44,780 nucleotides of DNA from an uncultured Gemmatimonadota bacterium (GTDB taxonomy: Bacteria; GCA-2686955), in NCBI GenBank assembly GCA_964490075.1, contig CAZBBK010000045.1:1-44780 (forward strand). The letters are read 5' to 3'. Shown here piece after piece: positions 13,824 to 36,415 of the stretch; positions within the stretch are counted from its first letter, which is position 1; every line of letters starts with the position of its first letter. The position numbers were made by a program, and so were the translations under genes. The notes under the pieces were generated by a model that was not told the DNA's origin, ran no database searches, and worked only from the letters and a program-made list of their open reading frames with translations.

Positions 13824-13900
13824 GGCCCAGAATAGGCCAAGGCAATGAGACTTCGGTCCGGGCCACGCGACCGGTGGACTGCCATGGAGACGCCGCCGTC

Positions 13901-14665: not shown

Positions 14666-14689
14666 TATAGACTCCCCGACCCTGTCCGG

Positions 14690-16066
<1,377 letters not shown>

Positions 16067-16592: not shown

Positions 16593-19500
16593 CTATTTGA
16601 TCAGCAGCATCCTGCGGCTCGCGCTGAAGCTGCCGGCCCGAATCCGATAGAGGTAGACCCCCGAAGGGACCTCCGCTCCGCTCTCGGCAGAACCGTTCCA
16701 ACGGACCGCGTGACGGCCCGCGGCGACCGGGCGGTCCGCCAGGGTTTTGACGCGGCGGCCGCCGAGATCATAGACCACCAGCTCCACGAGACTCGCCTGG
16801 GGCAGATCGAAGGAGATCGTGGTCACTGGATTGAAGGGGTTCGGCGAATTCTGGGCCAGCGCGGCGCGGCTCGGGATTCCCGGCCCCTGCCCGCGACGCA
16901 CCGAGATCTCGTGAGAGCCAAATGCCTCGCCCGTCTCCGCATCCACGGTGGTGATTCGGTAGCGATAGAGGCCGTCGGCCTGTGCGTCCTGATCGAGGAA
17001 CTCGCTCAGGCGAACGATCAGCTGGTCGTTCAGGCGCGTGCCGCGACCGTCTTCGACGCGGTCGATCTGCACGCCCGCAAGCTCCGCGCCGGCACCGACC
17101 AGGCGCCACGCGATCCGATTGCCTTCGGGCAAGGCGAGGGCACTGAGCTCGACGGCGCGAAGCCCGACGGGGACCCCGAAGAGCTGCAGCACATCGGAGA
17201 GCACGCGCCGGAGAGGCGTCGAGTCGTTGCCTCCGCTGACGCCCTCCAGGTTGAAGGGCAGGTAGACCAGCCGGTAGCCGCCTTCGTAGACCACGCCCGC
17301 GCCCAGCGCCGTGCCGGCGTAGACCAGCGCGTCTCTCGCTCCCCCCAGCGCCCGTATCGCATCCGGAGAATCCCAGTTGTCGGCGCCGCCTTCGCCGGTG
17401 AAGAAGAGCAACCACTCGGAGCTCAGCGGATCGGTCTCGACCCCTTCGGCGAGGGGCAACATGGCGTCATCCTGCACATGCTCAGACTTCAAGTAATATG
17501 AGAAGAAATCATCAGATCCTATTTCTTGGCCTATGTTTTTCCCGCTAAGAAGGAGGTTGCCGCCGCGCTCGAAATGGTCGGTCAGGAGCGCGCGTTCGCC
17601 TGGATCCAGGGTGCCCGTGGTGGCGTTGCCGCAGAACCAGATCACCGTTTCGAAGCCGGCCAGCGGATCGAAGCCGAGCTCCGGCGTCGCTCGACGGGTC
17701 CACCGATTCGGAAGGCTGCCGAGCTCGGCGAGCGGCTCTTCGTAGTAGTGGGCGAAGTCCTCGGTCGGATCATCGTCGACCAGCAGAAGTCCGCCGCGGC
17801 CGATGCGCACATCGAGGGTGTCGCTGCGGCTGAAGAAGTTGGGCTCGACCGAGAGGTCGACGATGAGCTGGACGTCCTCCACCTCGCTGATCCCCGCGTC
17901 CACCTCCAGCAGGAAGGGATCTTGAGAGTTGTCTCCCGCTTCTCCGGGTGACAGGTCGGGGATGCTGGAATTCTGTTTGGTCACCTGGAGCTTGGTGGAA
18001 AGAGAGCGCAGCGAGGCGCTGAGCTCGGTGGCCGCCATCGCCCCCGCCGGCAGCAGGTACTCCACCACGAGGGTCATCTGGTCCCCGGGATCGGCGACCA
18101 GGTCTGGCGCCTCGGCGTCGTACATGACGGCGCTCGCCAGCCCCAGCATCTCCACGAAACCATGGTCCGCCAGCGCCGGGTAGAGCTGGGCGCCGTGCGG
18201 TGTGCCGTTGCTGAGATCGCCGTCGTCGTCGTCCATCAGGAGGTAGTCGACGTAGTAGTCCATGTCATTGTCGGCATGGCCGTAGCGGGCGAAATGCCAG
18301 AGCGAGTCCGAGAGCGCCACCCCGCTCTCCTCGCCCAGTACGTCGATCAGATTGGCGCGGGCGTCCCAGAGCGCGCCGCAGTGGGTCTCGCCCACGCAAT
18401 GGACCTCGCCGCCGCACTCCGGCGCGGGGTAGACGCGCTCGTTGACGCAGTCTCTCAGATGGCTTCCCGGGCCGAAGAAGCCACGCCCGACGCGCGAGTC
18501 GTTCATGATGGTGACCGCGAGATAGTCGGAGAATCCCTCGTGCATCGCACCGGTCGCGTTGCCGCCCGATGCCCACTGCGTGACTCCGTGACCGTACTCG
18601 TGATAGATCACGTCGGCGATCTTGCCGATGCTGGGGCAGCCGCCTCCGCCGCGGTAGAAGGTCATGCCGAATCCGTCCCAGAAGGCGTTGCAGGAGCCTG
18701 CGGCTTCGACGCGCGCGCGCATGTCATAGTCGAGCGAGTTGAATCCGGGATCGATCGACTTCATGTAGTCGTGCACCACGCCGGTGTGGAAGTAGACGTT
18801 GCGCTCCGAGATCAGCGAGTTCTCGTCGTCCCACACCAAGTCGGTGCGCTGATTGGCCGGAGCGACCTGAGCCAGCGCGGCGTCGGAGCCGGCCATGTTG
18901 CGCACCCGCACCCAGAGCCCCTCTAGCCGGCTCTCCACGTCGTGGTCGCCGGCCGAGACATCCGCGCGCCAGGTTCCCGTCTCGTCGCTCTGGATGTCGG
19001 GGCCGGCGTCGATCGAGATATCCTCGTAGGCGAAGTCGCGGTACTCAGGCTCATCGGAGGGCGTGACCGGGAGGATCGGTCCGCCGATCTTGCCACCGAT
19101 CTGCGCGTACCGGATCTCGTTGTGGCGGGCGATCACCACAGCGTTGACCGCGTCGATCAGCTGAACCCAACGGCCGGGAGGATCGGCGGTCGTGGCCACG
19201 ACCTGCCACGCCAGCGCATAACCCAGCTCGCGACGGTCGGCGATCGGGACGATCACCAGCTTCGCGGGCCGGTCGGCGGCCGCGACCCCGTGCACCGCCG
19301 CGGCGCCCGTGGCGGCCGCATGGGCGGCGCTGATCTCCGGTCTGGTATCGAGATCGAGCTCGGGGTGCGTGTTCACGCCGATCAGCGTCAGGCGGCCGTC
19401 GGGCATGATGCGCAGATCGAGCCTCGCCCCGAGCACCGGCAGACCATCGAAGAGGCGCTCGTAGACCACGAACCAGCGCCCGCCGGCCCGGCGCGCGTGC

Positions 19501-19868
19501 GCCAGGCGGAGCTCTTCCGGGTCGAGGCGAAAGAGCTCGGCGTGCGCGCGGACGAAATCCCGGGTGACGCCCTCGACGTTGCCTCGATCGACCCGACCCA
19601 GGTGGATCCCCGGACCCATGATCCAACGCGGGACCCCGGTGCGCAGATCCCAGTTCGCCCTCCACTCCTCTCCGTGCTCGCCCAGGAAGCTCCGCCAGCC
19701 GGGAGAGCGGTTCATGCGGCGCGTGTACGACGCATCGAACACCGAGTCGATGCGCGGCAGATCGATCGTCTCCGGCGCCCGTGCGGGCGCGACGACTGCG
19801 TGGGCCGAGCCGGCCATCGGGAAGAGCGTGGCGATCAGAATGCCGGAGAGAGATCCACGGAGAGTCAT
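16593..19868 (-). CDS. secreted M36/M4-like zinc metalloprotease with FTP/PepSY propeptide and FlgD/T9SS type-A-like tail
   Basis: CNAFWDG, DVIYHEYGHG, HEGFSDY, GEVHCVG; propeptide region; tail NSPNPFNP...GVYLYRI...RMLLIK; start ATG 19868. Confidence 0.85.
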   Translation of the reverse strand: MTLRGSLSGILIATLFPMAGSAHAVVAPARAPETIDLPRIDSVFDASYTRRMNRSPGWRSFLGEHGEEWRANWDLRTGVPRWIMGPGIHLGRVDRGNVEGVTRDFVRAHAELFRLDPEELRLAHARRAGGRWFVVYERLFDGLPVLGARLDLRIMPDGRLTLIGVNTHPELDLDTRPEISAAHAAATGAAAVHGVAAADRPAKLVIVPIADRRELGYALAWQVVATTADPPGRWVQLIDAVNAVVIARHNEIRYAQIGGKIGGPILPVTPSDEPEYRDFAYEDISIDAGPDIQSDETGTWRADVSAGDHDVESRLEGLWVRVRNMAGSDAALAQVAPANQRTDLVWDDENSLISERNVYFHTGVVHDYMKSIDPGFNSLDYDMRARVEAAGSCNAFWDGFGMTFYRGGGGCPSIGKIADVIYHEYGHGVTQWASGGNATGAMHEGFSDYLAVTIMNDSRVGRGFFGPGSHLRDCVNERVYPAPECGGEVHCVGETHCGALWDARANLIDVLGEESGVALSDSLWHFARYGHADNDMDYYVDYLLMDDDDGDLSNGTPHGAQLYPALADHGFVEMLGLASAVMYDAEAPDLVADPGDQMTLVVEYLLPAGAMAATELSASLRSLSTKLQVTKQNSSIPDLSPGEAGDNSQDPFLLEVDAGISEVEDVQLIVDLSVEPNFFSRSDTLDVRIGRGGLLLVDDDPTEDFAHYYEEPLAELGSLPNRWTRRATPELGFDPLAGFETVIWFCGNATTGTLDPGERALLTDHFERGGNLLLSGKNIGQEIGSDDFFSYYLKSEHVQDDAMLPLAEGVETDPLSSEWLLFFTGEGGADNWDSPDAIRALGGARDALVYAGTALGAGVVYEGGYRLVYLPFNLEGVSGGNDSTPLRRVLSDVLQLFGVPVGLRAVELSALALPEGNRIAWRLVGAGAELAGVQIDRVEDGRGTRLNDQLIVRLSEFLDQDAQADGLYRYRITTVDAETGEAFGSHEISVRRGQGPGIPSRAALAQNSPNPFNPVTTISFDLPQASLVELVVYDLGGRRVKTLADRPVAAGRHAVRWNGSAESGAEVPSGVYLYRIRAGSFSASRRMLLIK

Positions 19869-19960
19869 GCGCGTTGCCTGTCCGAAGCTGTGGGTTTGGA
19901 GTGTGGGCGCAGCGACGCGCTGTGCGACCGCTGCCGATCGAGCAAAAGGGGTGCAGGGTC

Positions 19961-19975
19961 GCAAGTCTCACGCCA
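19961..19975 (-). promoter_or_regulatory. sigma54 -24/-12 promoter of the metalloprotease
   Basis: Minus strand TGGCGTG-AGAC-TTGC, 93 bp upstream of ATG 19868. Confidence 0.6.
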
Positions 19976-20715: not shown

Positions 20716-21705
20716 ATGCCTCGCGCACTCCAGCACTTCGCACCTCGTCTCACGCCCGGCTCCCTGCCCGACAAGATCTGGGCATGGATCCAGATCGGGC
20801 GCCCTCTGATCATCTTCATTTCGATCTTCGGCGCTCTGGTCGGGGCGCTGAACCTGCATGCGCACTTGCGGCAGTCGGCGGGGTCGATGCCGGGACCGGG
20901 TGCGCTCGCGCTCTGGGATTTGATGCTCGGCGCCGCGCTACTGAGCGCGGGGCTCATGATCCACAACGATGTGACCGACTACCCCTCCGATCGGATCAAC
21001 CGTCCCCACAAGCCGCTGCCGCGCGGCGCCATCAGTCATGGATGGGCGAAGTGGACGGGGATCGCCCTGATGCTCGCGGCGGTGGCGGTGGCGGCGACGG
21101 CCCGGGGACCCTCCGGCGCGCTGCACTGGAATCCGCTCTGTGGCGCGCTCACCGCCCTGGTCGTGGTCTCCGGCATCTTCTACAACGACCATGGCAAGAT
21201 GTACGGCCTGCTGGGCCACTGCGTGGTCGCCTTCGGCGTCGGAGCCATCCCCCTCTGGGGCGCGCTCAAGCTCTATCCCACCCAGGGGCTGATGATGCTG
21301 CCTCTGGCATGCGCGATCTTCGTGATGGAGATCGGTCGCGAGATCATGGTCTGCATCGGCGACCTGCCCGGTGATCGGGAGGCCGGCTTCAGGACCTCAC
21401 CGATTCGCCTCGGGCGCGATCGAGCCATGCAATTGGTACTGCTCTTCTACACGGGGTACCTGGCTCTTCTGCCCTTGCCCTTTACCGGCATCGGCCCCCT
21501 GCCCGGCCTCTTCGGCAGGCTCTACCTGGCCGGCGCGCTCGGGTTCGCCGCGATCCTCTGGTTCACGTGGTTCGCCACCCGGCGCGTCATCAGGAGTGGC
21601 GACGAGGATGCGATCTTTGCGGCCTTCGAGCGCCATATCCGCCTGGGGACCCGACTGGGGGTGGTGGGGTTCCAAGGGGTTCTCTTCGCCGAGGCCTTCG
21701 TTTGA
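20716..21705 (+). CDS. UbiA-superfamily prenyltransferase, DGGGP-synthase-like
   Basis: NDVTDYPSDRINRPHKPLPRG and REIMVCIGDLPGDREAGFRT motifs, multiple TM helices; start likely ATG 20716. Confidence 0.8.
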   Translation: MPRALQHFAPRLTPGSLPDKIWAWIQIGRPLIIFISIFGALVGALNLHAHLRQSAGSMPGPGALALWDLMLGAALLSAGLMIHNDVTDYPSDRINRPHKPLPRGAISHGWAKWTGIALMLAAVAVAATARGPSGALHWNPLCGALTALVVVSGIFYNDHGKMYGLLGHCVVAFGVGAIPLWGALKLYPTQGLMMLPLACAIFVMEIGREIMVCIGDLPGDREAGFRTSPIRLGRDRAMQLVLLFYTGYLALLPLPFTGIGPLPGLFGRLYLAGALGFAAILWFTWFATRRVIRSGDEDAIFAAFERHIRLGTRLGVVGFQGVLFAEAFV

Positions 21706-22511
21706 ACGGGCGCATCGATCGGCATCTTGGCGCGGCCTTCGGCCTGATCTCGATCGCCTTTCTGGCCTCCTTCCGCGCCGGCAATCGATTTGATTTCGAG
21801 GTGCCGATCGCGCTCCGCGCCGCCTATCTGGTCGTGGCGGTGGCGTTCCTCATCCACCATGGCCGACGCACACGAGGCACCAGGGAGTTCATTCGTTTTT
21901 GCGTGGCGGTCGCCGGGCTGGCCTACACAGCCGAGGTGATCGGAGTGCAGACCGGCTGGCTCTTCGGTCACTACCACTATGGCGACCGCCTGGGTCCCTT
22001 GATGCCCGGCGGCGTGCCGGCCGCGATTCCGGTCTTCTGGACTCTCCTGATCTACGCGGCGGACGACTACGTGACCCTGGCCTTCGGGGATGGGGTGCCT
22101 CGCTGGCTCAGGGCGGGCGCAGTCGGGGCCGTGGTGGCCGCGTGGGACCTGATGATCGATCCGATCGCCGTGGCCTACGATTGCTGGAGCTGGGAGGCCG
22201 GCTCGATGCCCACCGTGTTCGGCATTCCGGCGACCAATGCGCCGGGATGGTGGCTGATCGGCACCCTGGCGCTGCTCGTCGCCGTCCCCCGAAGGGGTAG
22301 CGGCCGGCCGCGGGGCGCTCCCTGGTTCGACCACCTGCCGGCCCTGGCTCTGGTCTGCGCGGCGGCCAACAACGCCCTGGCAACCGCGGAGCTGGGATTC
22401 CCCGGGGCAGGCGTGGCGGGTCTGATGGCTCTGGCCCCCTACGGAGTCGCCGCGTGTGCCCGCAAGGAGTGGCAGCGGCGCGCCCAGCCGAGCGCGGCCA
22501 GGGCGGGGTAG
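21702..22511 (+). CDS. CruF/DUF422 carotenoid 1,2-hydratase family membrane protein
   Basis: AEVIGVQTGWLFGHYHY, GVPAAIPVFW, WDLMIDP, FGIPATNAPGW; TTG start overlaps the UbiA stop (TTGA). Confidence 0.8.
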   Translation: MNGRIDRHLGAAFGLISIAFLASFRAGNRFDFEVPIALRAAYLVVAVAFLIHHGRRTRGTREFIRFCVAVAGLAYTAEVIGVQTGWLFGHYHYGDRLGPLMPGGVPAAIPVFWTLLIYAADDYVTLAFGDGVPRWLRAGAVGAVVAAWDLMIDPIAVAYDCWSWEAGSMPTVFGIPATNAPGWWLIGTLALLVAVPRRGSGRPRGAPWFDHLPALALVCAAANNALATAELGFPGAGVAGLMALAPYGVAACARKEWQRRAQPSAARAG

Positions 22512-23266
22512 GGAAGAGTCACCAAAGCACCGACGAGGGCCTCGCCCACTCGGCCGAGGTCGACGGCAAAGACCACCAACAAGGTGGTAAGCGCGAGACA
22601 CATCGGCACCGGAGCCGAGTAGCGCCATCGATCATGGGTCGCCATCCAATCCTCTCGAACCTGTCCCGCAGCCGCGTTCTCCAGGCGGTCGGAGAGGGCG
22701 AAGATCGCGGCCGAGACACCGAACCAACCGGCGAAATTGGAGAGCGGAATCCGGCCGAAGTAGGCTCCACCCTCCACCCAATCCCAGGCGCCGATCGCGA
22801 CACAGATCGGATCGAGCAGGAAGTCCCAGGCACAGAGCGCAGAGGCGGCGAAGAAGATCCGCGGGCCACGCCCGGAGGAGCGCGGCAGAGCCATCCGGGT
22901 CATCGCGTGCGCCAGGTAGGCGAGCAGGTACCAGGCGAGGGGTATCATCAGCGGCACCTGGCCGGCGATGCGCCAGCCCAACACGTCGCTGTAGCCGTAC
23001 GATCCGAAGATCCAGCCCCTCGAAGCACCGATCCACTCCGCGGCCAGGGAAATCCCCATGGCACTGAACGCCAAGGCGAGCGCGTTTCTGAGGCCGCCTC
23101 GGGCCAGCGCGTGGATCCAGGTGAGCGCGAGCACGAGCACGCCCTGCGCCGCCACCACCCCTCCCTCGAGCGACAGTCCCGAACCGAGCGCGGCTCTGCG
23201 GAACACGACGGAGAGCGCGAAGGCGACCAGGCACGAGTCGTAGAGTCTGCGCATCGCCGGCGTCAA
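22439..23266 (-). CDS. CruF/DUF422 carotenoid 1,2-hydratase family membrane protein (second copy)
   Basis: AEWIGASRGWIFGSYGY, VPLMIPLAW, WDFLLDP, IPLSNFAGWF; TTG start after AGGAGG. Confidence 0.85.
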   Translation of the reverse strand: MTPAMRRLYDSCLVAFALSVVFRRAALGSGLSLEGGVVAAQGVLVLALTWIHALARGGLRNALALAFSAMGISLAAEWIGASRGWIFGSYGYSDVLGWRIAGQVPLMIPLAWYLLAYLAHAMTRMALPRSSGRGPRIFFAASALCAWDFLLDPICVAIGAWDWVEGGAYFGRIPLSNFAGWFGVSAAIFALSDRLENAAAGQVREDWMATHDRWRYSAPVPMCLALTTLLVVFAVDLGRVGEALVGALVTLPYPALAALGWARRCHSLRAHAATP

Positions 23267-23299: not shown

Positions 23300-24619
23300 T
23301 CAGGGGGCGCGCATCCGATCGATGAGCTTGTCCTCGCCGCCGCCTTCGAAGAGGGTCCGGGACGCGAGATCATCGGGTCGCGTCTCCCAGTACTGCAGGC
23401 CGTTGTACTCCACCCACTGCCCCGGAAGCACGTCGAGCTCGATGCTCCAGGGCTGGGGATCGCGAATCGCCTTGGCCAACGCCAGGCCGTCGGCCAGGCG
23501 GATGTTGGTCTCGGTCTCGAACACCACATGGCGCACCAGGCGTACGATCTCGAGCCACGACAGCCCCTTCACCTGGGCGTGAAACGAGTGGATGAAGTCG
23601 ATCCAGCGGTGCACCCGTTCCATTTGGGAAGCGACATAGTCGACCGAGGAGATGGTGTCTCGGAAGAAGAGGATGTACTCCCAGGCCTCGCGCCCTCCCA
23701 GGACCTGCTTTCCCTCGGGGATCCGCAGCGCCTCGGAGAGCACGGGGGTGACGAACACCGGGATACCGCCCAGCAAGTCGACCATCTTCTCGAAGCTGAT
23801 CCGCTCCTGGATCAGGTAGGCGTGCACCGGAATGCCGGAGGCGTACTCGACCTGGTCGAGCATCAGGGGAGCGCCCCCCAGCAGGTAGGCGTCGCGCAGA
23901 CGATCCGCGCGCTTGCGGTTCGGAAAGGCCACGCGGGTATCGAGCGGCAGGTTCATCAGGTGCATCTTGCGTCGCTGAGATTCGATCTCGGCGAGGAAGA
24001 ACACACTCGGAACGCCCATGTAGAGGATGTTGACGTGATCCAGATCGAGCGGTCGCGGGGGGCGGCTGGAGGCGGCGTGCTCCTTGGCGCGCTCGAGCTC
24101 CTCGGCGAACTGCCTGTCCTGGATATTGCCACGGGCGTGCTCGGCCTTGGTCAGGCCGATGCCCATGAAGGGGGCCGAATCGGGGGCGGCCTCCACGTAG
24201 GGGACATGGATCCTGGCCGGCCCGGTCAAGCGAGCGTTGACATCGATCAGCGTGAGATCCGCCGAGGTCCGCACCCGGGCCTGGGCGAGGACCTCGTAGA
24301 CCATCGTGTGCGGCGGAACCTCGAAGTCGCCAGGGTCTTCGACGGCCCCGGTGACCGCAACCGTGATCGGCTCCTCCTCTGCGTGCGGAGCGAGGGCCAC
24401 CCGCGGAGTGGGATGCAGCCGGGTCCAAGCGACTTTGGCGATGCCGATCCCGACTACCCCGAAGCCGATGATCACCACGGCGTAGATGAGCCTGCGGATC
24501 ACCGGCGCCCGCCGGGCGATGGCGCTTCCCAACGCTGCTTTGCCACCGTTCGAGGCGCTACGCGCGCTTCGGTCCAGGTAGCGACGTCGCTCTTGCCGAT
24601 AGTCGCGTTCGCCGGCCAT
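23300..24619 (-). CDS. membrane-anchored SLBB domain + divergent LCP (LytR-CpsA-Psr) family protein
   Basis: N-terminal TM, VAVTGAVEDPG SLBB motif, LMNLPLDTRV, RLRDAYLLGG, FEKMVDLLGGIPV, ETNI. Confidence 0.75.
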   Translation of the reverse strand: MAGERDYRQERRRYLDRSARSASNGGKAALGSAIARRAPVIRRLIYAVVIIGFGVVGIGIAKVAWTRLHPTPRVALAPHAEEEPITVAVTGAVEDPGDFEVPPHTMVYEVLAQARVRTSADLTLIDVNARLTGPARIHVPYVEAAPDSAPFMGIGLTKAEHARGNIQDRQFAEELERAKEHAASSRPPRPLDLDHVNILYMGVPSVFFLAEIESQRRKMHLMNLPLDTRVAFPNRKRADRLRDAYLLGGAPLMLDQVEYASGIPVHAYLIQERISFEKMVDLLGGIPVFVTPVLSEALRIPEGKQVLGGREAWEYILFFRDTISSVDYVASQMERVHRWIDFIHSFHAQVKGLSWLEIVRLVRHVVFETETNIRLADGLALAKAIRDPQPWSIELDVLPGQWVEYNGLQYWETRPDDLASRTLFEGGGEDKLIDRMRAP

Positions 24620-24625: not shown

Positions 24626-26254
24626 TCAGTGCCCCGTCTTGAGAGCCTCGAGCCACTCCCGCAGCTCGGCGTTTCCGGGCTCGATCTGCAGAGCGCGCTC
24701 CCAGGCGGCGATCGCCTCGTCCACGCGGCCCTGCTTCACGTAGATCGACCCCAATCGGACGAACGAGAGTTCGAGATATGGAGCGATATCGATCGCCACC
24801 AGACACTCGTTTTCCGCGCTCTCGTAGTCCCCGGCGAAGTAGTGCCCGACGGCCTGCACCAGGTGGCGCAGGGCTTCGTTGGTGCGGGTGCTGCGCTGAA
24901 TGACCACGTTCTTGTCGCGGATCACCTCCTCGAGGCGCCGAACCTGCTCGTTGAGCTCTTGCTCGAGGCCCTGGTTCTTCGCCTCCTTCTCGAGGGACTC
25001 CTTCTCGGCCTCGAGCGACGCGCGTTCCTCGATCTCCTTCTGAAGCAGCTTGCGCTCCGACTCGAACTTCTCTTGCAGCGCCGCCTCGATCTTCTTGCGC
25101 TCGCTTTCCAACAGGCTGGCCTGATGCTTGGACAGCGACTCCGCGACCTCGAAGGCCACCTGCTCCTTCTTCTTCTTGAGCGCCTCCTCGAGCTGCCGCC
25201 GATTCATGAACTTCTGGTAGACCTTCGAGGTGTCGTAGAGGAAGGTCAGCCCCACGGTCGGCGCGCCCAGACCGCTGTCGTACAGCTCGCCGATCGGCAC
25301 GGCGTATTCCCAGGCGGTATCGATCGAGACGCGCAGCCTGCGGATGTAGGTGTACTCCTTGCCATCGAGCAGATCGAAGCCCGGATCGCGCCACTCGCGG
25401 CGCAAGAACTCGAAGCTCAGCCCCAGCGCCGCCTGGGTCGCGCGGCCTTCCCCGGTCGCGTTGTCGCGAATCCCGGCACGAGTCTGCAGCCGCTGATTGA
25501 GGAAATCGGCCTCTGCGCCCGCCAGGATGCGGATTGGAGCGGATCCACCGACGTCGAGGGCTTCGTACTCGGCGTCGACGTCGAAACGATAGGCGGTCGC
25601 GAGGTAGCCGACTCCGAGCCGGTAGCGCCTGGCCGCGGGGTCTTTGTCGAGCTTGTTCAGAGCGAGATTGGGCTCGAGCAGATTGAACGCGGCCAGACCG
25701 ATCTGTAGCCGGTCGTTCACGCGGAAGAGCAGCCCAGCATCGAGGCTGTAGTTGGCGTTCGATGCTCCGCCGCGCAGGAAGATCGGATCGGTTACCACCT
25801 CGTGTTGATACTGAGGATGCAGGGCCGAGAAGCTGAACCCCTTGCTGAGGCGGCGACCGGTGAGGCCGAGCGAGAGGCGGCCACGTTGCCAGACTCCGAC
25901 GCCATACGAGAACGCGAGATCGTACTCGCGGTAGATCTCATCCCCCGTCGTGACCCCCGCCAGCGCCAGCGTTCCCAGCTTGCCGAAGGGATAGGCGACC
26001 CCCAGGTACTGGTCGCTGATCCCGACCTCGTCGATCCCCAGGTAGGGGCGGGTGTACGAGGTAGAGAACTGGATCAAGGTGATCCCTTGCAGACCCGCCG
26101 GATTGTAGAAGGCGGCGGAAGGATCGCTCGCCAACGCGGTGAAGGCCTGCCCCATTCCGGCGGCACGGATGCCGCCCGGGATCTCGAACGCGGCGAAAGC
26201 GGAGCCGCTCAGACAGAGACTGCCGAGAAGCGCGATCGTGGGTCTGCGTCTCAT
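24626..26254 (-). CDS. PorV/PorP(SprF)-like outer-membrane beta-barrel fused to a long coiled coil and TPRs
   Basis: GIRAAGMGQAFTALASDPSAAFYNPAGL N-terminus, amphipathic strands, E/K-rich coiled coil (about aa 345-460), TPR LGSIYVKQGRVDEAIAAWERALQIEP; ATGA overlap with upstream gene. Confidence 0.75.
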   Translation of the reverse strand: MRRRPTIALLGSLCLSGSAFAAFEIPGGIRAAGMGQAFTALASDPSAAFYNPAGLQGITLIQFSTSYTRPYLGIDEVGISDQYLGVAYPFGKLGTLALAGVTTGDEIYREYDLAFSYGVGVWQRGRLSLGLTGRRLSKGFSFSALHPQYQHEVVTDPIFLRGGASNANYSLDAGLLFRVNDRLQIGLAAFNLLEPNLALNKLDKDPAARRYRLGVGYLATAYRFDVDAEYEALDVGGSAPIRILAGAEADFLNQRLQTRAGIRDNATGEGRATQAALGLSFEFLRREWRDPGFDLLDGKEYTYIRRLRVSIDTAWEYAVPIGELYDSGLGAPTVGLTFLYDTSKVYQKFMNRRQLEEALKKKKEQVAFEVAESLSKHQASLLESERKKIEAALQEKFESERKLLQKEIEERASLEAEKESLEKEAKNQGLEQELNEQVRRLEEVIRDKNVVIQRSTRTNEALRHLVQAVGHYFAGDYESAENECLVAIDIAPYLELSFVRLGSIYVKQGRVDEAIAAWERALQIEPGNAELREWLEALKTGH

Positions 26255-29200
26255 CGAGCCACCCCCACCGTGCCCGAGTAGACACGGTTCCCCGCGTCAT
26301 ACTGATACACGTAGAGCCCGCCCGGGACCAGCGAGCCCCCTGCGTCGCGCCCGTCCCACGAGAACACGACGGTCTCGAAGCTGAAGTTCTGGTCCACCGA
26401 GAGCGCGGCCACCAGCTCGCCGCGCCGATTGAACACCTTGAACGGGTTCGATCGAGCGGATCCGGTCGGGAATTGAATCACCAGGGCGTCGTTCTTGTCG
26501 TCCACCAGTCCGGGCGAGATAATCCTGGGGTCCGGCTCGTTGAAGAGCCCCGAGAGAGTGGTGGTGAAGAAGAGGTTGCACGATCGCCAGTTCGGCACCG
26601 GCAGCCCCGCCTCGAGATCGGCGGCCTCCACCTCCACCGAGAGCCGCCGGCCCAGACCGAAGGAGATGGCGTCGGTCCGAATCGAGATCTGGACGTTGCG
26701 CAGGACTCCCTCCGGATCTTCCTCGGCATCGATGGTGACGGTGCCGACCCGGGCCGCGTCGGCCGCGGCATCGCCCGCCGCGACCAAGAGCAGCTGCTCG
26801 GCCGTGGAGAGGTTCAGGATGACCAGGATCTCGTCGAGATCGATTCCGGTGTCCGCGAGCCGCGGCTCCTCGATCTCGATCACGATGAGCAACGAGTCCT
26901 TCGGCACATTGACCGCTTCCTGGACCATGCTGCCGATATCCGCACAAAGAGAACGGCCCAACGAATCGGGATTGGTGTAGGTGGTGTCGCCGACCAGACG
27001 GCCTTGCTCGAGGAGGGTAATGTCGATGTCGGGGGCGATCAGGTCGGGTGATGCGGTGAAGCTCCACTCGTAGGGCGGAACCATCGGGTTCTCTGCCTTG
27101 TCGGTCGCGCTGACGCGCATCATCACCGGACCGGCTGGAAATGCCTCCTCCGGTATCCAGACGATCCGCTTCCCCGCGTTGCAGGGCGGATCGCAGGCCT
27201 GGAACTCCAGGTCGTCGAGCGGGATATTTGCGTAGCCGCCCATGGCGGGGGTTTCGTAGGAGAGCACGACCGTGGAGTCGACCAGCCCCGAGATGTCGTC
27301 GTCGATCTCCACCTCCACGGAAACCGATGTGGGAGCGCTCTCTCCATCGGCCGGGATGGTCTTCACCACGAAGGGGGGGTTGAGATCCTCCACTGTGTAG
27401 AAGTAGTAGGCCTCGTCGACCAACTCGTTGCCGGCCCAGTCGAGCGCGGTCACCAGAAAGCGCACCTCGGAGTTGAAGCGGTACTGGGGGTTGGGGAAGT
27501 AGGTCCACTTGGTGCAGTGCGGCGCACCTGAGTACCCCGTGCGACCGTTGCCACAGGCATCGGTGAACCTAGCGTCGAGCGATACGTTGAGCGTGTCGGG
27601 CTCGTCCCCCGAGCGGGGGATGATCCTGAGGATCCGCGGGCGCAGCTCGGCCTTGTCGGCGTCGCTGAGAACCTCCGCGGCCTGGGCGGCCGTGGTACAG
27701 GCCGGGCAGAACCACTGCCACGACCTGATGCGAATGCCGGCACCGTCGTCGTTGATCTGAATCTCGGTGCGCTGATCCTCGCGAACGTCGGTCTGCGCCA
27801 GCGCCGGCGAGGTCGAACCGTCGATCGGGGGATAGGCGATGTAGGGCGGCTGCTCGTCATCGATGATGGTGATGAAGGAGAAGAGCCGCGGATCGCGGAG
27901 GGGGTTGCCGACGAAATCCTCCGCGAAGAGCACCACGGTGACCGTGTCGTTGGGGAAGAAGAGCTCCCGCAGCGGCTCATCTTCGGGCTCGAGTCCGGTC
28001 CAGAAGAAGTCGGCGTAGGTGAAGTAGTCGATCGACACCAAGCGGTCGTTGATCTGTGTCAAGGAGCTGTCGGGAAGATCGACGGTCACGGTGTCGCGAT
28101 AGATGCCCCCCAGCTCGGTCTCACGCTTGAAAGAGACGGTCATGACCACCGTGGAGTCCCTGACCGCCGTGTTGTCCTCGATGCGGGCGCGGATCGGTGT
28201 GACCAGCGGCACGTCGCCCAGGGTGTCGGCCAGGGCGCCGGGATAGGTCGAGCCGGGGACCACGAAAGGGGACTCGATGTCGGAGGCGATCGAGTAGAAC
28301 CACTGCTCGGTCACGATCGGGTGGCCCCCCTCGTCGTGGGCCTCGACCACGATCGACATATTGAGGCCCGCTCCGAGCGAATCCTCCGGCCAGTGGACCA
28401 GCGCTTCGGCCTTCCACTGGGCGTCTCCGCCGGGCTCGTCCGCCGGCGTACGGATCTCCACCAGCTCGTTCGGCACCGGGAAGTCGTTGACCGTGAACTG
28501 AATCGTGGCTCGGTCGACGCCTTCGTCGAGGGTGCCGACCACACCGCCGGTCATGATCTCGTCGTAGATGCGGATCACGGTGTCGTGGTTCCGGAGGACG
28601 TTGGTGGCGCCGGGCGCCGGGCTCATCGCCCAGCTGTAGGGAGTGCCCCCGAGCAGGACCCTGACCACGCCGGGGCGCAGCAGCTCGGCATCTTCGCCGC
28701 GTGACACGCCCGCGATCAGGTCAGGCCGGCCGTCGTCGTCGATGTCGGCGATCGCCACCGCCTCGCCCATTCTCTCGCTGCCGGATGCGCCGTAGATCGC
28801 CGTGTGGGATTGGTCCGCGACGGAAACCGGGGCGCCACTGAAGTTCGACCGTCCGGGCATGAAGAAGGCGCCGCCACGCTTTCCGGCGCGAGCGGGGGTA
28901 CCGATCAAGAGATCCTCGGAGGCTCCCCAGTCGCGGTGGCCCTCGGGATGGAACTGACCCACCGCGAGTCGCACGGCGATCGAATCGGGCGCACCGTTCA
29001 GACCGGAGTCGTCGAAGCGCAACCAGGGCGGCGAGCTGTCGAGGGAGATCTCGGCCGGCCACGGCGCGCCGGTGTTGCGAAGCACGAAGATCGCACCGAA
29101 GAAGCTCGACGCTCCGACGGTGCAGAGGTCGGTGAGGCCGTCGCCGTCGATGTCGCCGCTGGCCAGCCCCCCGCCAAAGGCGCGCCCGATGCCATAACCC

Positions 29201-30156
29201 TCGATCTTCACCGTGGCGGCGACCTGGTCGAGCTCGAAGATCGTGCCGGGGCCGTCGAAGAAGGTGCTGCCGTCGCCGCCATCCAGCAGGTAGACCACTC
29301 CGACATCCTCGGTTCCGAGACCGGGAGCGCCCACCGCCAGGTCGGCACCGGGGATTCCGAGCGACAGGTCGAGGGTCGTCAGAGCCTTGCCCACCGCTTC
29401 CAGAGACTCCCCCCCCATGATTGTCACGTCGGCCGCGTCGCCGACCGAGAAGCTCCCCTGCCCCAACGGGCTCTTCATGACATAGACGGCACCGGCCTGG
29501 AACTGGCCGAGATTGCGCGCCCGCGGCGCACCCATCGCCAGGTCGACCTGCCCGTCGCCGTCGAAATCGCCCACGGCCAACGAGGATCCGAGGCGATCCT
29601 GAGCATCGACGCCGGAGAAGTCGACCACCGCTCCGGTCACCGGATCGTCGATGTCCCGCGGCGAGAGATCGGCCGAGATCGGGCCGGCAACGATCCACAC
29701 CTGGCCGGCCAGATCGGTGCCGAAGGAGGTGCCGATGACGAGGTCGGCGGCGCCGTCCGGCGCGCCGCCCGACGGAGAGATCACGTCTTCGATCAGAAGA
29801 GCGGTGCCCAGCTCGTGATTGGCCGCGGGCCCGATGTAGGTGGCGAAGGCCGGTGTATCTTTCAAGCGGATCTCGGTGGGGAAGCCCGAGCCGCCCTCGA
29901 CCACGTACACGGCTCCCGATGCGCCGCCGTTGACGGTCGAGAGCTGCGGTGCGCTGACGACCAGGTCGTTCACGCCATCGCCGGTCAGATCGCCGGCCGC
30001 GAGCGCCGCGCCGAAACTCGACCCCGCGCCGGCACCGACGATAGTCACATTGGTGTCTTTGGTGGCGGTATCGTACTCCGACAGACCGAGCGCGCCCGGC
30101 GCCAGGGCGAGAGTCGCGGGAATCGCTGCTGCGCAGAGGATCGATCGGTGGATCAC
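26251..30156 (-). CDS. large adhesin: 7 FG-GAP (integrin-alpha-like) repeats, 5 Ig-like repeats, T9SS type-B-like C-terminal domain
   Basis: FGAALAAGDLTGDGVNDLVVSAP-type repeats; DxxPPxV...AxDxxGN repeats; tail ISPG..DDKND...VFNRRGELV...WDG...GLYVY...GTVGVAR. Confidence 0.85.
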   Translation of the reverse strand: MIHRSILCAAAIPATLALAPGALGLSEYDTATKDTNVTIVGAGAGSSFGAALAAGDLTGDGVNDLVVSAPQLSTVNGGASGAVYVVEGGSGFPTEIRLKDTPAFATYIGPAANHELGTALLIEDVISPSGGAPDGAADLVIGTSFGTDLAGQVWIVAGPISADLSPRDIDDPVTGAVVDFSGVDAQDRLGSSLAVGDFDGDGQVDLAMGAPRARNLGQFQAGAVYVMKSPLGQGSFSVGDAADVTIMGGESLEAVGKALTTLDLSLGIPGADLAVGAPGLGTEDVGVVYLLDGGDGSTFFDGPGTIFELDQVAATVKIEGYGIGRAFGGGLASGDIDGDGLTDLCTVGASSFFGAIFVLRNTGAPWPAEISLDSSPPWLRFDDSGLNGAPDSIAVRLAVGQFHPEGHRDWGASEDLLIGTPARAGKRGGAFFMPGRSNFSGAPVSVADQSHTAIYGASGSERMGEAVAIADIDDDGRPDLIAGVSRGEDAELLRPGVVRVLLGGTPYSWAMSPAPGATNVLRNHDTVIRIYDEIMTGGVVGTLDEGVDRATIQFTVNDFPVPNELVEIRTPADEPGGDAQWKAEALVHWPEDSLGAGLNMSIVVEAHDEGGHPIVTEQWFYSIASDIESPFVVPGSTYPGALADTLGDVPLVTPIRARIEDNTAVRDSTVVMTVSFKRETELGGIYRDTVTVDLPDSSLTQINDRLVSIDYFTYADFFWTGLEPEDEPLRELFFPNDTVTVVLFAEDFVGNPLRDPRLFSFITIIDDEQPPYIAYPPIDGSTSPALAQTDVREDQRTEIQINDDGAGIRIRSWQWFCPACTTAAQAAEVLSDADKAELRPRILRIIPRSGDEPDTLNVSLDARFTDACGNGRTGYSGAPHCTKWTYFPNPQYRFNSEVRFLVTALDWAGNELVDEAYYFYTVEDLNPPFVVKTIPADGESAPTSVSVEVEIDDDISGLVDSTVVLSYETPAMGGYANIPLDDLEFQACDPPCNAGKRIVWIPEEAFPAGPVMMRVSATDKAENPMVPPYEWSFTASPDLIAPDIDITLLEQGRLVGDTTYTNPDSLGRSLCADIGSMVQEAVNVPKDSLLIVIEIEEPRLADTGIDLDEILVILNLSTAEQLLLVAAGDAAADAARVGTVTIDAEEDPEGVLRNVQISIRTDAISFGLGRRLSVEVEAADLEAGLPVPNWRSCNLFFTTTLSGLFNEPDPRIISPGLVDDKNDALVIQFPTGSARSNPFKVFNRRGELVAALSVDQNFSFETVVFSWDGRDAGGSLVPGGLYVYQYDAGNRVYSGTVGVAR

Positions 30157-30884
30157 GGCTGGCCCCCAACCGATAGGGTCGCGTCAGCATCCTGCGAGCC
30201 CCACATCCGATCGGCGGGACCGGGGGCCGCCTCGTCGGCCGGCGTCAGGTTGGAGCGTACGATCTTGATCTCGACCCGCCGATTGCGCTGGCGCCCCTCG
30301 GGCGTGTCGTTGGAGTCGATCGGCTTGTGCTCGCCGTATCCCATCAGCTGAAGATCCTCGGGCCCGAAGTAGCCCCGATCGAGGTAGTAGCGGACGACGG
30401 AGACCGCGCGGGCCGCCGACAGCTCCCAGTTGGACGGGAACTGAGGGGTGTGGATCGGCACGTTGTCGGTGTGGCCCTCCACACGCACCGTCGCGGGTCC
30501 ATAGGTCAGCAGGTTGTCGCGGATGATTCGGTAGGCCTCGTCGAGCACCGGCAGGGCCGCGGGTTTGAGCTGCGCGCGCCCGGAGTCGTAGAGCACCTTG
30601 CCGGAGATCCGGAGCACCACCTCGCCCGGCTGGAACTCCCGCTCCACCAAGTTCTCGCGCTCCTGGTACTCGGCCAGCGCCTTTTCCAGCTCGCCGATCC
30701 TCCCGGCCTTCTCCACCGCGAAGAAGAGGATGAAGAACACCATGAGCAGCGACACCAGGTCGGAGTAGGTCACCACCCAGGGCGGCGACCCGGTCACCTC
30801 TCGGTCGACGATTCTGGGCCTGAGCAGGTCCTTCCAGCCGCTGCCCCGGCGCGCTTCTTCCTTGGAGGTTGGTCTCAGGTCCAT
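30153..30884 (-). CDS. motB: stator protein MotB (OmpA-like peptidoglycan-binding domain)
   Basis: WVVTYSDLVSLLMVFF TM with conserved Asp; EGHTDNVP, SNWELSAARA, NRRVEI. Confidence 0.92.
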   Translation of the reverse strand: MDLRPTSKEEARRGSGWKDLLRPRIVDREVTGSPPWVVTYSDLVSLLMVFFILFFAVEKAGRIGELEKALAEYQERENLVEREFQPGEVVLRISGKVLYDSGRAQLKPAALPVLDEAYRIIRDNLLTYGPATVRVEGHTDNVPIHTPQFPSNWELSAARAVSVVRYYLDRGYFGPEDLQLMGYGEHKPIDSNDTPEGRQRNRRVEIKIVRSNLTPADEAAPGPADRMWGSQDADATLSVGGQP

Positions 30885-30909: not shown

Positions 30910-31653
30910 TCACTTCGTGGCCACGAACGTGTCGAGCTTCTCTTTCACCAGGCGGGTCGTATCTCCGGCCTGAATGGAGAGCACGCCCATGATCATCATG
31001 TCGCGGACCTTCTGATCTTCCTCGTTGTGAGTTCGGAACTTCGCCGCGATCGGCACGAACACCAAACCGGCCAGGGCGATTCCGTAGAAGGTCGTCACCA
31101 GTGCGACCGCCATGTTGCGGGGAATCGCCTCGGTGTTCTCGACGTTGTTGAGCATCAAGATCAGACCGATGACGGTACCGAGCAGTCCGAACATCGGCGC
31201 CACCTGCCCGAGCTGTGCGAAGACGCGCTCCGAGAGGCGGTACTCTTCTGCCAGAATCTGCGAGCGGGTCTGCATGATGTACTGGATCTGGTCGGGATCG
31301 ACGCCGTCGGCGAGCAGCTCCACGCCCGCGCTCAGGAAGTCCAGGTTGCGCCCGCCGCCCTGCACCGAGAGGTTGACGAAGCCCTCCCGCCGGGCGCGCT
31401 TGGCGACATCCAGGAGCAGCTCGTAGCCGTCGTCGCAGCGCGGCGGCGGCGCGAAGATCACGCGCAGGTAGCGCACGAACGAGCCCCCGAGCTGGCGCAC
31501 CCGGTAGGTGACCAGCGCGGAGAGGAAGGTGCCGCCCACAGTGATCGCCACCCCCATCGGATTGACGAACCAACTGGGATCGCCTTCTTGCATCACGGCG
31601 GTCACGATCAGCGCGACCCCCATGAGGAGGCCGATGATACTCAGGACCCCCAT
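30910..31653 (-). CDS. motA: stator protein MotA
   Basis: ARREG, APMFGLLGTVIGL, MAVALVTTFYG, FVPIA motifs; four TM segments. Confidence 0.92.
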   Translation of the reverse strand: MGVLSIIGLLMGVALIVTAVMQEGDPSWFVNPMGVAITVGGTFLSALVTYRVRQLGGSFVRYLRVIFAPPPRCDDGYELLLDVAKRARREGFVNLSVQGGGRNLDFLSAGVELLADGVDPDQIQYIMQTRSQILAEEYRLSERVFAQLGQVAPMFGLLGTVIGLILMLNNVENTEAIPRNMAVALVTTFYGIALAGLVFVPIAAKFRTHNEEDQKVRDMMIMGVLSIQAGDTTRLVKEKLDTFVATK

Positions 31654-31887: not shown

Positions 31888-33426
31888 TCATGCCTGGGGC
31901 TCTGTCACTTCCGCTTGGGGCGCTCCCGGGGCCGAGATCCGACCCGAGGTGATCAGGGAACGGGCCGCGCGAACGACCCTGAGCTGAGCGTCCGAAACCT
32001 GCTCATCCGACTGGTAGGGCAAGACTTCGAGCTCTTCTTCCAGCATCTCCAAGACACGCTCGGAGCAGTTGCGGAAGAACTTCTCTCTGATCTCTCTCTG
32101 GGCGCGCTTGAGCGCGGACGCCAGGTGAGAGAGCTCCATGGCGCCGATGATGTGCTTGATCGCGATCTCGTCGAGCGCCAGAACGTCCTCGAATAGGAAG
32201 ACCTCCTCCTTGGCCACTCGGGCGAGCTCCGGATCGCGGGCGGCGAGCGCGTCGATGAGCTGCTTCGCGAGGGTCGTATCGACCCGCGACATCACGCTCC
32301 TGAGAACATCCTCGCCGCCGATCGAGATCTCGTCGGGCCGCAGGATCTCGGTATCGAGCTTGCTTTGCAGGACCTCCCGCAGGGTCTGCAGGTCGGCGGC
32401 GCTGGCGCGCACGCCACGCCCCATCTCCTCCATGACCCTGCCTTGCAGGTCGTGGCTGAAGCCGGAGAGCAAGTTGGCCGTGCGGTCGGTGGGGAGCGCC
32501 GTCAGAATGACGGCGATGTCGTGCGCCTCATGGTCCTTCAGCAAGCCGAGCATCTGCTCGTCGCTGAGAGCCTTGAGGAATGAGAAGCTGCGCTCTTGAA
32601 TCGGGACGATCGCGTTCCTTGGCATGGCCTCCGGTTCCGTTTCCGTGATCGTGGCTTCCGCAAGGTCGCCCTCGCCTCCGCCACCTTCTTCGGTAATGCC
32701 GCTGCCCGCGAGGTCCATCTCGGCACCGGCATCGGCGGCCTCTTCCTCCGCGGCGCGGCGCTGGCCGATGGCGCGCAAGATGAGGAACAGGCTGAGCACG
32801 ATCAGGGCCGCCAGGAAGAGCCCCAGCACCGCCAGCGAGATCAGGCGGCTACGTTCGGCGGCTCCCATCGACTCATCGAAATCGAGCGGGCGCAGATCGA
32901 CGACATCGCCTCGATCCAGATCCAACCCGGCCCAGATCGGCACCATGGAGCGGATGCGTAGGACGAGGGCCTGATCCAAATCGGGCTCGTGGAACACCCG
33001 CACCTGGATCCTCGTGATGGCCGATCGGTTGCGGGCGTCGGTGACGGTGCGCGAGCGCGCGACCGGCAGTCCCGGGAGCGATGCGAGCGGATCGAAGGCG
33101 GTGCCTTCGAGGGCCGCGTCCACCCTCGTTTGCGCCACATCGATGTCGACCGAAACCAGCACCCGATGCTCGCCCAGCATCTCGCCCAGCATCGCCTCGA
33201 TGCGGGAAGACATCTCGCGCTCGAGTGCGACCTCCTCGACCGATCGCTGGGAAAGCAGCGCTCCGGCGGCCGTATCGGGCTGGGCCAACGATGTGATCTG
33301 GGCGTTGCAGGGCAGCGAAGCCACCGAACAAAACGCCAACAGGGCGAGGAGGCTGCCGCAGCACTTGCCTCTTCGCCCATCACGAGATTCGGTATGGTGG
33401 AAGATTGCGTTTGAGATCGCGGTCAC
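31888..33426 (-). CDS. FliF ring (RBM3-like) domain - TM - FliG middle/C-terminal domain fusion protein
   Basis: Signal peptide; EREMSSRIEAMLGEMLG..VSVDID, LPG, ITRIQV, AGLDLDRGDVVDL (FliF C-terminal); TM; FSFL..HEAHDIAVIL, GGED, DPELA..VFLFEDV, FFRNCSER..EEE (FliG). Confidence 0.8.
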   Translation of the reverse strand: MTAISNAIFHHTESRDGRRGKCCGSLLALLAFCSVASLPCNAQITSLAQPDTAAGALLSQRSVEEVALEREMSSRIEAMLGEMLGEHRVLVSVDIDVAQTRVDAALEGTAFDPLASLPGLPVARSRTVTDARNRSAITRIQVRVFHEPDLDQALVLRIRSMVPIWAGLDLDRGDVVDLRPLDFDESMGAAERSRLISLAVLGLFLAALIVLSLFLILRAIGQRRAAEEEAADAGAEMDLAGSGITEEGGGGEGDLAEATITETEPEAMPRNAIVPIQERSFSFLKALSDEQMLGLLKDHEAHDIAVILTALPTDRTANLLSGFSHDLQGRVMEEMGRGVRASAADLQTLREVLQSKLDTEILRPDEISIGGEDVLRSVMSRVDTTLAKQLIDALAARDPELARVAKEEVFLFEDVLALDEIAIKHIIGAMELSHLASALKRAQREIREKFFRNCSERVLEMLEEELEVLPYQSDEQVSDAQLRVVRAARSLITSGRISAPGAPQAEVTEPQA

Positions 33427-35764: not shown

Positions 35765-36415
35765 TCACGAGAAACGGTCATAGAGGAAGATACTCACGCC
35801 GAGGAGATACACGGTGTTGGTGAGATAATGCCACTTGAACTTGAAGTTCTCGCGGACATAGAGAGCATCGCCCGGATAGAGCATCAGATCTTCGCGCTCG
35901 CGAATATCTCCTTCGCTCTTCCAGACTGATTCGAGAGAGATGTTCTTCACCTCTCCCGTGTTTTTGAACACGCGCACACGCTTGACCTCTTGATCGATCG
36001 CGCCTCCGGCCAGGGTGAGGGCATCGATGATCGAGATCGGCTCGAAGAGCTGATAAGTCCCCGGCGAACGAACAGCGCCCTGCACCGAGAGATTCGAACG
36101 GAAGAACCTGGTCACGTAGACCGTAACCGCCGCGTCGCGGGCGTACGGCTTGATCTTCTCCGCGATGATCTCCGAGAGCTGCCGGGGGGTAAAGCCGCGC
36201 GTGAACACGTCGCCGACCAACGGGTAGCTGATCATTCCATCGGGCCGGACTTGCGTCGTGAGGCTGAACTCGGGATGGTCCAGAACCTGGATCTTGACGC
36301 CATCTCCGCCGCGGATCGTGTATTCCTCCGCCACGGCCTGTCGGCCACAGAAGAGAAAGAGCAGCACGCTGAGCGCTGCGATCCACTTTGTTGACGCTGA
36401 TCTGGTCGATCTCAC
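35765..36415 (-). CDS. wza: polysaccharide export protein (Wza/OPX family, short form)
   Basis: YTIRGGD, VRPDGMISYPLVG, SLBB VQGAVRSPG, LTLAGG, LYPGD, C-terminal amphipathic helix. Confidence 0.88.
   Translation of the reverse strand: MRSTRSASTKWIAALSVLLFLFCGRQAVAEEYTIRGGDGVKIQVLDHPEFSLTTQVRPDGMISYPLVGDVFTRGFTPRQLSEIIAEKIKPYARDAAVTVYVTRFFRSNLSVQGAVRSPGTYQLFEPISIIDALTLAGGAIDQEVKRVRVFKNTGEVKNISLESVWKSEGDIREREDLMLYPGDALYVRENFKFKWHYLTNTVYLLGVSIFLYDRFS

Follow-up and report, generated by a model that had tools for sequence, protein, structure and literature searches.

A PorV/PorP-type barrel protein with a helix-TPR arm is encoded beside a sorting-domain adhesin, MotAB and a FliF-FliG fusion in a Gemmatimonadota bacterium

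We analysed a contig of an uncultured Gemmatimonadota bacterium (CAZBBK010000045.1 of assembly GCA_964490075.1), whose full 44,780 nucleotides are called the window here, with a focus on the open reading frame (ORF) 24626-26254. This ORF lies on the minus strand and encodes P0001, in which a PorP/PorV-like outer-membrane barrel is followed by a long helix and tetratricopeptide repeats (TPRs). Along the minus strand the genes run in the order Wza-like OPX protein (outer-membrane polysaccharide export), Wzc-like kinase, 512-aa FliG fusion, MotA, MotB, adhesin, barrel protein and SLBB/LCP protein, and from MotA through LCP they are separated by overlaps or by gaps of 6-25 nt. A preliminary description, drawn from the letters of the sequence, had proposed that the helix could be a drive shaft between a rotor and the adhesin. 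The barrel gene is divided as follows.

24626..26254, minus strand: the whole gene, P0001, PorP/PorV-like barrel, helix and TPR, 542 amino acids (aa) (ORF, ATG start and translation; AlphaFold2 pLDDT 92.2)
26192..26254, minus strand: signal peptide, aa 1-21, ending in AFA (read directly from the sequence; low pLDDT at 15-19)
25208..26191, minus strand: aa 22-349, an N-terminal hatch that carries the NPA motif (N51-P52-A53), followed by a barrel of FadL/PorV fold with 14 strands (DSSP strands, Foldseek, PDB profile match)
24884..25201, minus strand: predicted periplasmic spacer helix, aa 352-457, rich in E, K and R and kinked at the conserved G429; its conserved hydrophobic seam is narrow
24629..24883, minus strand: signature terminal TPR module, aa 458-542, two TPRs and a capping helix (TPR_2 37.9 bits; alignments)

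The PorV/FadL-like N-terminal motif quoted in the preliminary description, RAAGMGQAFTALASDPSAAFYNPAGL, is present at aa 30-55 after a Sec-type signal peptide, and the hatch residues N51, P52 and A53 were invariant or nearly so in the family alignments. AlphaFold2 (AF2) was run on an alignment of 98 rows, consisting of the query and 97 of the 150 best matches of a representative search; the other 53 covered the TPR part only, as judged from the match columns, and were dropped. The resulting model, with a mean predicted local distance difference test score (pLDDT) of 92.2 and a predicted template modelling score (pTM) of 0.69, contained 14 beta-strands within aa 61-349, a helix at 352-428, a break at N427-Q428-G429, a second helix at 431-473 and TPR helices at 477-539. 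The layout first read from the sequence, namely strands to about residue 345, a helix to about residue 460 and then TPRs, agreed with the model to within a few residues. The even-numbered connections of the barrel are 3-5 residues long (90-94, 123-126, 179-182, 219-221, 252-255 and 295-298), and the alternating loops reach 24 residues (141-164 and 191-209), as is usual for barrels with short turns on the periplasmic side and longer loops outside. Taken with the number of strands, these turn and loop lengths point to a periplasmic C-terminus, which was the other outcome that the AlphaFold check suggested at the outset was meant to deliver.

Foldseek placed the barrel in the FadL family (E 2e-9), with PorV (6h3i_F) as the best superposition (TM-score 0.64 on the target; root-mean-square deviation 4.5 Å), and a PDB profile search matched the same chain at E 8.6e-14 through similarity of the N-terminal sequences. 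PorV (6h3i_F, 8gl6_F) differs from P0001 in that it has no C-terminal arm. The Pfam family PorP_SprF (PF11751) matched with 34.1 bits against a gathering score of 22.3, covering only profile positions 74-188 of 273. Toluene_X (PF03349), the family of the FadL/TodX transporters, gave no match to P0001 at E <= 0.01 and matched 18 of 94 barrel relatives, a set that is biased because the query itself carried the TPR. As 81 of these 94 relatives have a C-terminal extension of at least 80 aa and 49 have TPRs, the earlier statement that PorV and PorP barrels normally lack such an extension holds for the canonical proteins but not for most of these relatives. When aa 1-350 were used for the homologue search, 4 matches only were returned. 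The locus was present in four DNA runs from one marine metagenome study, and no RNA run containing it was listed; a scan of metagenome contigs with the orthologue alignment returned TPR-only matches.

Directly upstream of the barrel gene lies the gene of a large adhesin.

26251..30156, minus strand: FG-GAP/Ig-repeat adhesin, 1301 aa (FG-GAP 101.9 bits; its stop overlaps the ATG of the barrel gene)
26254-26613, minus strand: type-B-like sorting domain of the T9SS (type IX secretion system), the last 120 aa of the adhesin (isolated tail, CHU_C 31.3 bits; gathering score 27)

The isolated adhesin tail exceeded the Pfam CHU_C threshold of 27 bits in three of four orthologues (31.3, 31.8 and 28 bits), whereas the tail from genome G001 scored 14 bits. 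The NCBIfam model of type-B domains, TIGR04131, gave no match for the window tail, and an orthologue at locus L013 scored 13.5 bits against a cut-off of 35. Adhesin and barrel are thus paired as in the PorP/SprF cargo-anchor paradigm. According to PMC9143113, PorP binds both type-B cargo and PorE, and SprF binds SprB; binding of type-B cargo by PorP-like 14-stranded barrels is described there and in PMC12618676. The window resembles the P. gingivalis PorP-PorE-PG1035 and F. johnsoniae SprF-SprB systems in having a 14-stranded FadL-family barrel, encoded directly downstream of a cargo with a type-B-like C-terminal domain (CTD), in a host with SprA and PorU. It also differs from them. The TPR is supplied there in trans by PorE, whereas P0001 has arm and TPR fused to the barrel, and its gene travels with FliF-FliG and MotAB genes, which are not known to belong to any described T9SS.

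The distribution of the barrel was followed in a sample of 201 genomes, comprising the window's genome (G000), its four kin and 196 genomes from other families, in which related genomes are not independent. A barrel relative (E <= 1e-15) was found in 18 of the 201. All 18 have an SprA-like ORF, which occurs in 72 genomes overall, and a barrel relative was absent from all 129 SprA-negative genomes. For 15 of the 27 non-kin barrel places the DNA was fetched, and at eight of these an ORF end resembling the adhesin tail lay 15-158 bp upstream of the barrel. G000 itself encodes a translocon (SprA, 522 bits summed; PorU, 439 bits). GldL, GldM and GldN families were not found in it, but control genomes also lacked a match above the cut-off, so that the absence of these three is not established. 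A housekeeping PorV identity for P0001 was rejected, since better PorV/PorQ-family proteins are encoded elsewhere in G000 (122 bits on contig C2 and 198 bits on C11; cut-off 90) and a PorV2-like gene adjoins PorU on C74. This makes P0001 a divergent paralogue rather than the general shuttle.

Other candidate clients of this secretion system were also seen. About 25 further ORFs of G000 have C-termini matching the sorting-domain end of the PorU model. Three likely T9SS cargoes with FlgD_ig-like C-terminal domains lie in the window at 5485-7842 (+), 8114-9979 (+) and 16593-19964 (-), and are, in this order, an M1 peptidase, a 621-aa protein without other family match and an M4/M36-like metallopeptidase. 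A second cargo-barrel pair occurs at L005 (G000:C6:29686-33423), where the ORF of a CTD protein, 2291-3736 (-), overlaps the start of ORF 1372-2310 (-), which encodes a PorV-like, armless barrel of 312 aa.

Upstream of the adhesin, the gene string continues with stator and rotor genes.

30153..30884, minus strand: MotB paralogue with an OmpA-like domain and a plug (stop codon overlapping the start of the adhesin gene)
30910..31653, minus strand: MotA paralogue (MotA_ExbB 91.1 bits)
31888..33426, minus strand: FliF-FliG fusion with signal peptide, FliF-C-like periplasmic domain (SLPGLPV loop), transmembrane (TM) helix and FliG middle and C-terminal parts

The FliG part of the fusion, which follows the TM helix after an acidic linker, matched FliG_C with 91.3 bits and T. 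maritima FliG (1lkv) at E 2.5e-26. An Arg and an acidic pair, aligned to the canonical FliG torque-helix residues whose role is treated in PMC7564593, are kept in the fusions of the window and of G134, and the acidic pair alone is kept in those of G024:C1 and G193. The N-terminal part of the fusion was searched as a profile (E <= 1e-4), which matched in 25 of the 201 genomes, and 13 of the 27 non-kin places were examined. At three of the 13, fliF and fliG form an ordinary pair, and the profile falls on FliF in its C-terminal half. The matched residues are roughly 230-480 in G083:C20 and in G061:C4, while in G085:C3 the matched ORF lies directly upstream of fliG. From these matches to genuine FliF, the N-terminal part is identified as FliF-like, in keeping with the name that the preliminary description had given it. 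In Pfam, YscJ_FliF_C stayed below its 23.8 bits on the isolated N-terminal part (14.6 and 19.9 bits) and gave no match in G001.

The window set shares with the flagellar MS-ring/C-ring and MotAB a FliF-C-half-like domain, the FliG middle and C-terminal parts with torque-helix charges, and MotA/MotB. It differs in that FliF and FliG are here one polypeptide, with a cleavable signal peptide replacing the first TM helix, and in that rod, hook, FliM and FliN are not in the loci. The preliminary description had spoken of a missing flagellar rod, but G000 is not lacking a flagellum: its flagellar contig C36 carries a separate FliF, a separate FliG and a second MotB. The window genes are thus an extra, separate rotor/stator set. 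In a five-genome set from the phylum, barrel and FliFG fusion occur in the same four genomes, and G001, which belongs to another family and is 39% identical, has the identical eight-gene order.

The same combination of genes was found in other lineages. The other 10 of the 13 places are one-frame fusions of a FliF-C-like part with FliG, in seven non-kin genomes; MotA and MotB accompany 7 of the 10. Several loci are truncated by contig ends, one of these 10 among them. The S-L/M-P-G-x-P loop is conserved in such fusions, for example L094:9205-10590, L099:8843-10504, L098:8397-10364 and L096:1749-3704, and those of G024:C1 and G193:C39 have an extra C-terminal TPR behind FliG. At 5 of the 10 loci (G134, G148:C51, G148:C88, G024:C1 and G193:C39), a barrel relative lies directly upstream of the fusion, with 14-nt gaps or overlapping frames. 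These five loci come from four genomes in four other families, and the neighbourhood is found across phyla. In G134, gaps of 4-14 nt separate the genes for an adhesin with a similar tail, a barrel-TPR protein (P0026, 486 aa), FliFG, MotA and MotB. G148:C51 has an adhesin tail, a barrel with many TPRs and FliFG, and G148:C88 has a bare barrel, FliFG, MotA and two MotB genes; tandem MotB genes after MotA were seen at L097 (G193:C67) and L099 (G148:C88). That gene order differs between the lineages favours selection over inherited synteny. At G058:C43, the ORF directly upstream of FliFG (L100:10290-11279, minus strand) encodes a lipoprotein, not a barrel, in which a short coiled coil is found together with the signature TPR seen in P0001.

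FlhA (PF00771) was found in G134 and was not found in G148, G024, G193 and G058, which are 95-100% complete; in the controls, E. coli, B. subtilis, C. vibrioides and T. maritima, it was matched in every case. FlhA is thus undetected in four of the five host genomes tested, and all four carry FliFG fusions, three of them with MotAB close by, which has the look of a FliG/MotAB motor in bacteria without flagella. Atlas look-ups, which serve as a lead only, gave barrel-TPR and FliF_C-FliG clusters that are both commonest in Elusimicrobiota.

The arm of P0001 was compared with that of four full-length or near-full-length orthologues (P0002-P0005), whose identity to the window protein goes down to 39-43%. 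Across the helix of about 110 residues, P0005 has insertions of 1 and 11 residues, and the other four of the five aligned sequences, which are those of the window protein and of P0002-P0004, are free of indels. The most conserved parts of the alignment are the TPR and the preceding helix segment, aa 434-465. With about 105-120 helical residues at 0.15 nm each, the helix would be 16-18 nm long, close to the 17 nm estimated in the preliminary description. E, K and R make up 40% of it, hydrophobic residues only 32 of 126, and those hydrophobic positions that are conserved lie 4 and 7 apart. The periodicity was near 3.67 in helix 1 (p ~0.07 vs shuffles) and a clear 3.5 in helix 2 (0/2000 shuffles). 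The arm helix is amphipathic with a narrow seam and does not look like a strong heptad coiled coil; a canonical one was rejected because hydrophobic residues are few and the 3.5-residue periodicity is weak in helix 1.

Long-helix orthologues are few: 1.84 billion representatives contained 4 clusters of them (50% identity). The motor-adjacent relatives elsewhere differ in their spacers, with a beta-rich linker of 76 aa in G134, a solenoid of TPRs in G148:C51 and, in both G024 and G193, a stretch of about 220 aa rich in TPRs. As shown by the alignments, the same signature TPR ends every motor-adjacent relative that bears an arm. Considering that the helix is limited to the window lineage and that other spacers take its place elsewhere, the helix is a variable spacer, and the TPR is the conserved module.

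These results bear directly on the idea of the helix as a substitute for the flagellar rod that would transmit torque from the FliF-like ring to a barrel-bound adhesin. An extended helix of this length could cross most of the periplasm, its length is fixed in all but one of the aligned sequences, and the operon has rotor and stator but no rod genes. We nevertheless consider a literal drive shaft very unlikely. In the preliminary description, absence of the coiled coil from the same operon type was to count against the idea, and outside the window lineage the long coiled coil is indeed absent from G134, G148 and G058. In addition, the seam is weak and narrow, the helix is tied to a membrane-embedded barrel and not to an axial structure, and a ring of such arms could, we infer, not sweep through peptidoglycan. 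P0001 had no match to the rod families (FlgB/C/F/G) at E <= 0.01 in Pfam or NCBIfam. With these points together, the proposal of a rod replacement was not borne out, whereas a connector agrees with the data, and the helix is more simply a lineage-specific spacer, unlikely to be a rod-like drive shaft.

The two ends of the gene string are occupied by genes of another kind.

33513-35687, minus strand: Wzc-like co-polymerase/tyrosine kinase, a lineage-specific neighbour
35765-36415, minus strand: short Wza-like OPX protein, 216 aa, Poly_export and one SLBB, a lineage-specific neighbour
23300..24619, minus strand: SLBB and LCP-family (LytR/CpsA/Psr) protein, 6 nt downstream of the barrel gene, lineage-specific

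The LCP protein has an N-terminal SLBB/ComEA-like domain, in a diderm host, and is kept in G001-G003. The Wza-like OPX protein ends in a hydrophobic helix, which is also present in the G001 orthologue. No orthologue of P0011 was found in the five genomes reached through the loci. Further long ORFs of the window, at 13679-16054 (+), 11189-12307 (-), 12925-13941 (-) and 21522-22628 (-), had no Pfam match at E <= 1e-4; the window is of high G+C, and some of them may be shadow frames.

Wza and Wzc stand in the same gene string in both G000 and G001, which raises the possibility that the barrel is a polysaccharide export porin, serving as the outer-membrane partner of Wza-like OPX/Wzc with the TPR as a scaffold, as in PgaA, BcsC and PelB. 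Porins of the PgaA/BcsC/PelB/Wzp type are 16-18-stranded and open and have their TPR N-terminal to the barrel. The window barrel is instead a 14-stranded, hatch-bearing FadL fold with its TPR C-terminal to the barrel, and the linkage to export genes is not conserved: none of the 24 non-kin loci that were fetched and searched for Wza, Wzc and LCP contained them (15 barrel-relative loci and nine further), and tblastn for the three at L094 and L090 was likewise without match. The need of Class-3 OPX proteins for a separate beta-barrel porin (PMC12819527) speaks for such a role; unlike these, the window Wza may itself span the outer membrane through its hydrophobic helix. An export porin therefore fits the data poorly and is very improbable.

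Also considered was a channel of the FadL type that takes up hydrophobic nutrients and passes them through its TPR to a carrier in the periplasm, since P0001 shares the fold and the NPA hatch motif, and since 8 of the 94 relatives match UPF0164. A barrel with C-terminal TPRs has been described in T. pallidum (PMC8407342), where TP0548, TP0859 and TP0865 are modelled as FadL-like barrels with a presumed periplasmic C-terminal TPR bundle, a layout called novel there. Such a hand-over is proposed for the three proteins. They differ from P0001 in their short linkers, and are not known to have a helix of about 110 residues, a pairing with CTD cargo or a link to motor genes. In our data, no lipid or hydrocarbon catabolic genes were found among the barrel neighbours, the barrel is tightly paired with the CTD adhesin, and it occurs in SprA-positive genomes only. 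Nutrient uptake thus also accounts poorly for the data, and we regard it as extremely unlikely.

With moderate confidence, we favour the reading that P0001 anchors the adhesin in the manner of PorP and docks by its periplasmic arm on a FliFG/MotAB motor that is not the flagellar one. P0001 would then be the outer-membrane end of a conserved non-flagellar FliF/FliG-MotAB machine. Its PorV/PorP-type barrel, by analogy with PorP/SprF, most likely receives and anchors the type-B-like CTD of the adhesin encoded upstream, and its arm would be the C-terminus running into the periplasm, with the two-repeat signature TPR at the working end. The most likely docking site of the TPR is the periplasmic side of the operon's own motor, at either the FliF-like ring or the peptidoglycan-bound MotB, and a proton-driven inner-membrane motor would thereby be joined to a surface adhesin. 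In the window lineage, the helix would act as a fixed-length ruler or tether, not as a rod homologue. It is the gene neighbourhood, with barrel-TPR and FliFG genes adjoining in four genomes, that suggests docking and transmission of force. A link of the arm to the FliF-like ring, as the preliminary description had it, is on this ground a reasonable proposal, and the contact itself a prediction. More tentatively, a MotAB-turned ring of FliF (C-half)-FliG may act via the TPR arm on the adhesin-bearing PorP-like barrel, as a widespread and undescribed machine in which a rotor/stator without export apparatus, rod or filament moves or actuates an adhesin for gliding or switchable adhesion.

The main rival is a plain wall tether. 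In that case, a PorP-like anchor with a built-in PorE-like arm would fix barrel and adhesin to a peptidoglycan-associated or periplasmic scaffold, and the nearness of the motor genes would have a different cause, co-regulation for example. Complexes of PorP, PorE and cargo have been documented, in which PorE is a protein with both a peptidoglycan-binding domain and a TPR (PMC9143113). Several of our results likewise weigh against a motor-docked arm. Tails of the barrel relatives end in LysM in 10 of 94 and in an OmpA-like domain in some (L017, L019 and L074), which suggests plain wall tethering. Of the 15 fetched barrel loci, 14 had no FliFG match (the exception is L078), and the FliF-C-like profile had no match in 11 of the 14 non-kin genomes with a barrel relative, so the barrel family is broader than its association with the motor. 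Conversely, no barrel was seen in the fetched DNA of the fusion loci G024:C19, G060:C216 and G083:C5, and the motor-adjacent barrel of G148:C88, with 346 aa, has no arm at all. At the level of families, P0001 did not reach the NCBIfam cut-offs for PorP (TIGR03519; 31.8 bits vs 90.55) or PorV/PorQ (NF033709; 38.7 bits vs 90), and the coiled-coil character of the helix is weak. The AF2 model of the FliFG fusion had a pLDDT of 61.5 from a 5-row alignment, and the alpha-beta-beta-alpha-beta order seen in this low-confidence model is a hint only. Co-folding of the TPR and distal helix (aa 430-542) with the FliF-like periplasmic domain of the fusion (aa 44-196) gave a score of 0.23 (mark 0.32), which, with 5-row alignments and without controls, carries no weight either way.

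What a static tether leaves unexplained is that the signature-TPR subgroup adjoins FliFG in genomes of four other families, in rearranged order and with near-touching frames, and that in G058 the same TPR stands on a lipoprotein beside FliFG, though SprA was not found there. We therefore consider the tether unlikely and retain the motor-docked anchor as the preferred reading.

A functional parallel is GldLM-GldKN of the T9SS and gliding machinery, in which a proton-driven inner-membrane motor is joined across the periplasm to an outer-membrane complex handling SprB-type adhesins (PMC8986121, PMC9127263). The two differ in that the spanning part there is the inner-membrane GldM, whereas in the window it would be the outer-membrane barrel protein, with a motor of the FliG/MotAB type. 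Within the literature searched, we found no account of this operon type, of a natural non-flagellar FliF-FliG/MotAB system or of natural FliF-FliG fusions with MotAB beside PorV/PorP-like barrels; supplementary files may list such genes.

In the window's host, the fusion with its own MotAB is a second, separate set within a flagellated organism. To our knowledge, FliG is known solely as a flagellar rotor protein. At least four other genomes carry the fusion without detectable FlhA, three of them beside PorV/PorP-type barrels with signature-TPR arms; in the fourth, G058, the signature TPR is borne by the lipoprotein. If the arm docks on the motor, ion-driven motors of the inner membrane would be coupled to surface adhesins in a third way, besides those of GldLM/T9SS and Agl-Glt. 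The distinction between a conserved docking module, the TPR, and a variable spacer, the helix, guides the choice of the part to mutate. If the reading is true, these genes would offer a testable system for flagellar rotor/stator function without the export apparatus. They would also bear on how type-B T9SS cargo is handled outside Bacteroidota. On the more tentative reading, the motor could power the type-B branch of the T9SS in lineages in which GldLM was not found. A flagellar rotor/stator working without the type III export core would, finally, bear on the origin of the flagellar motor.

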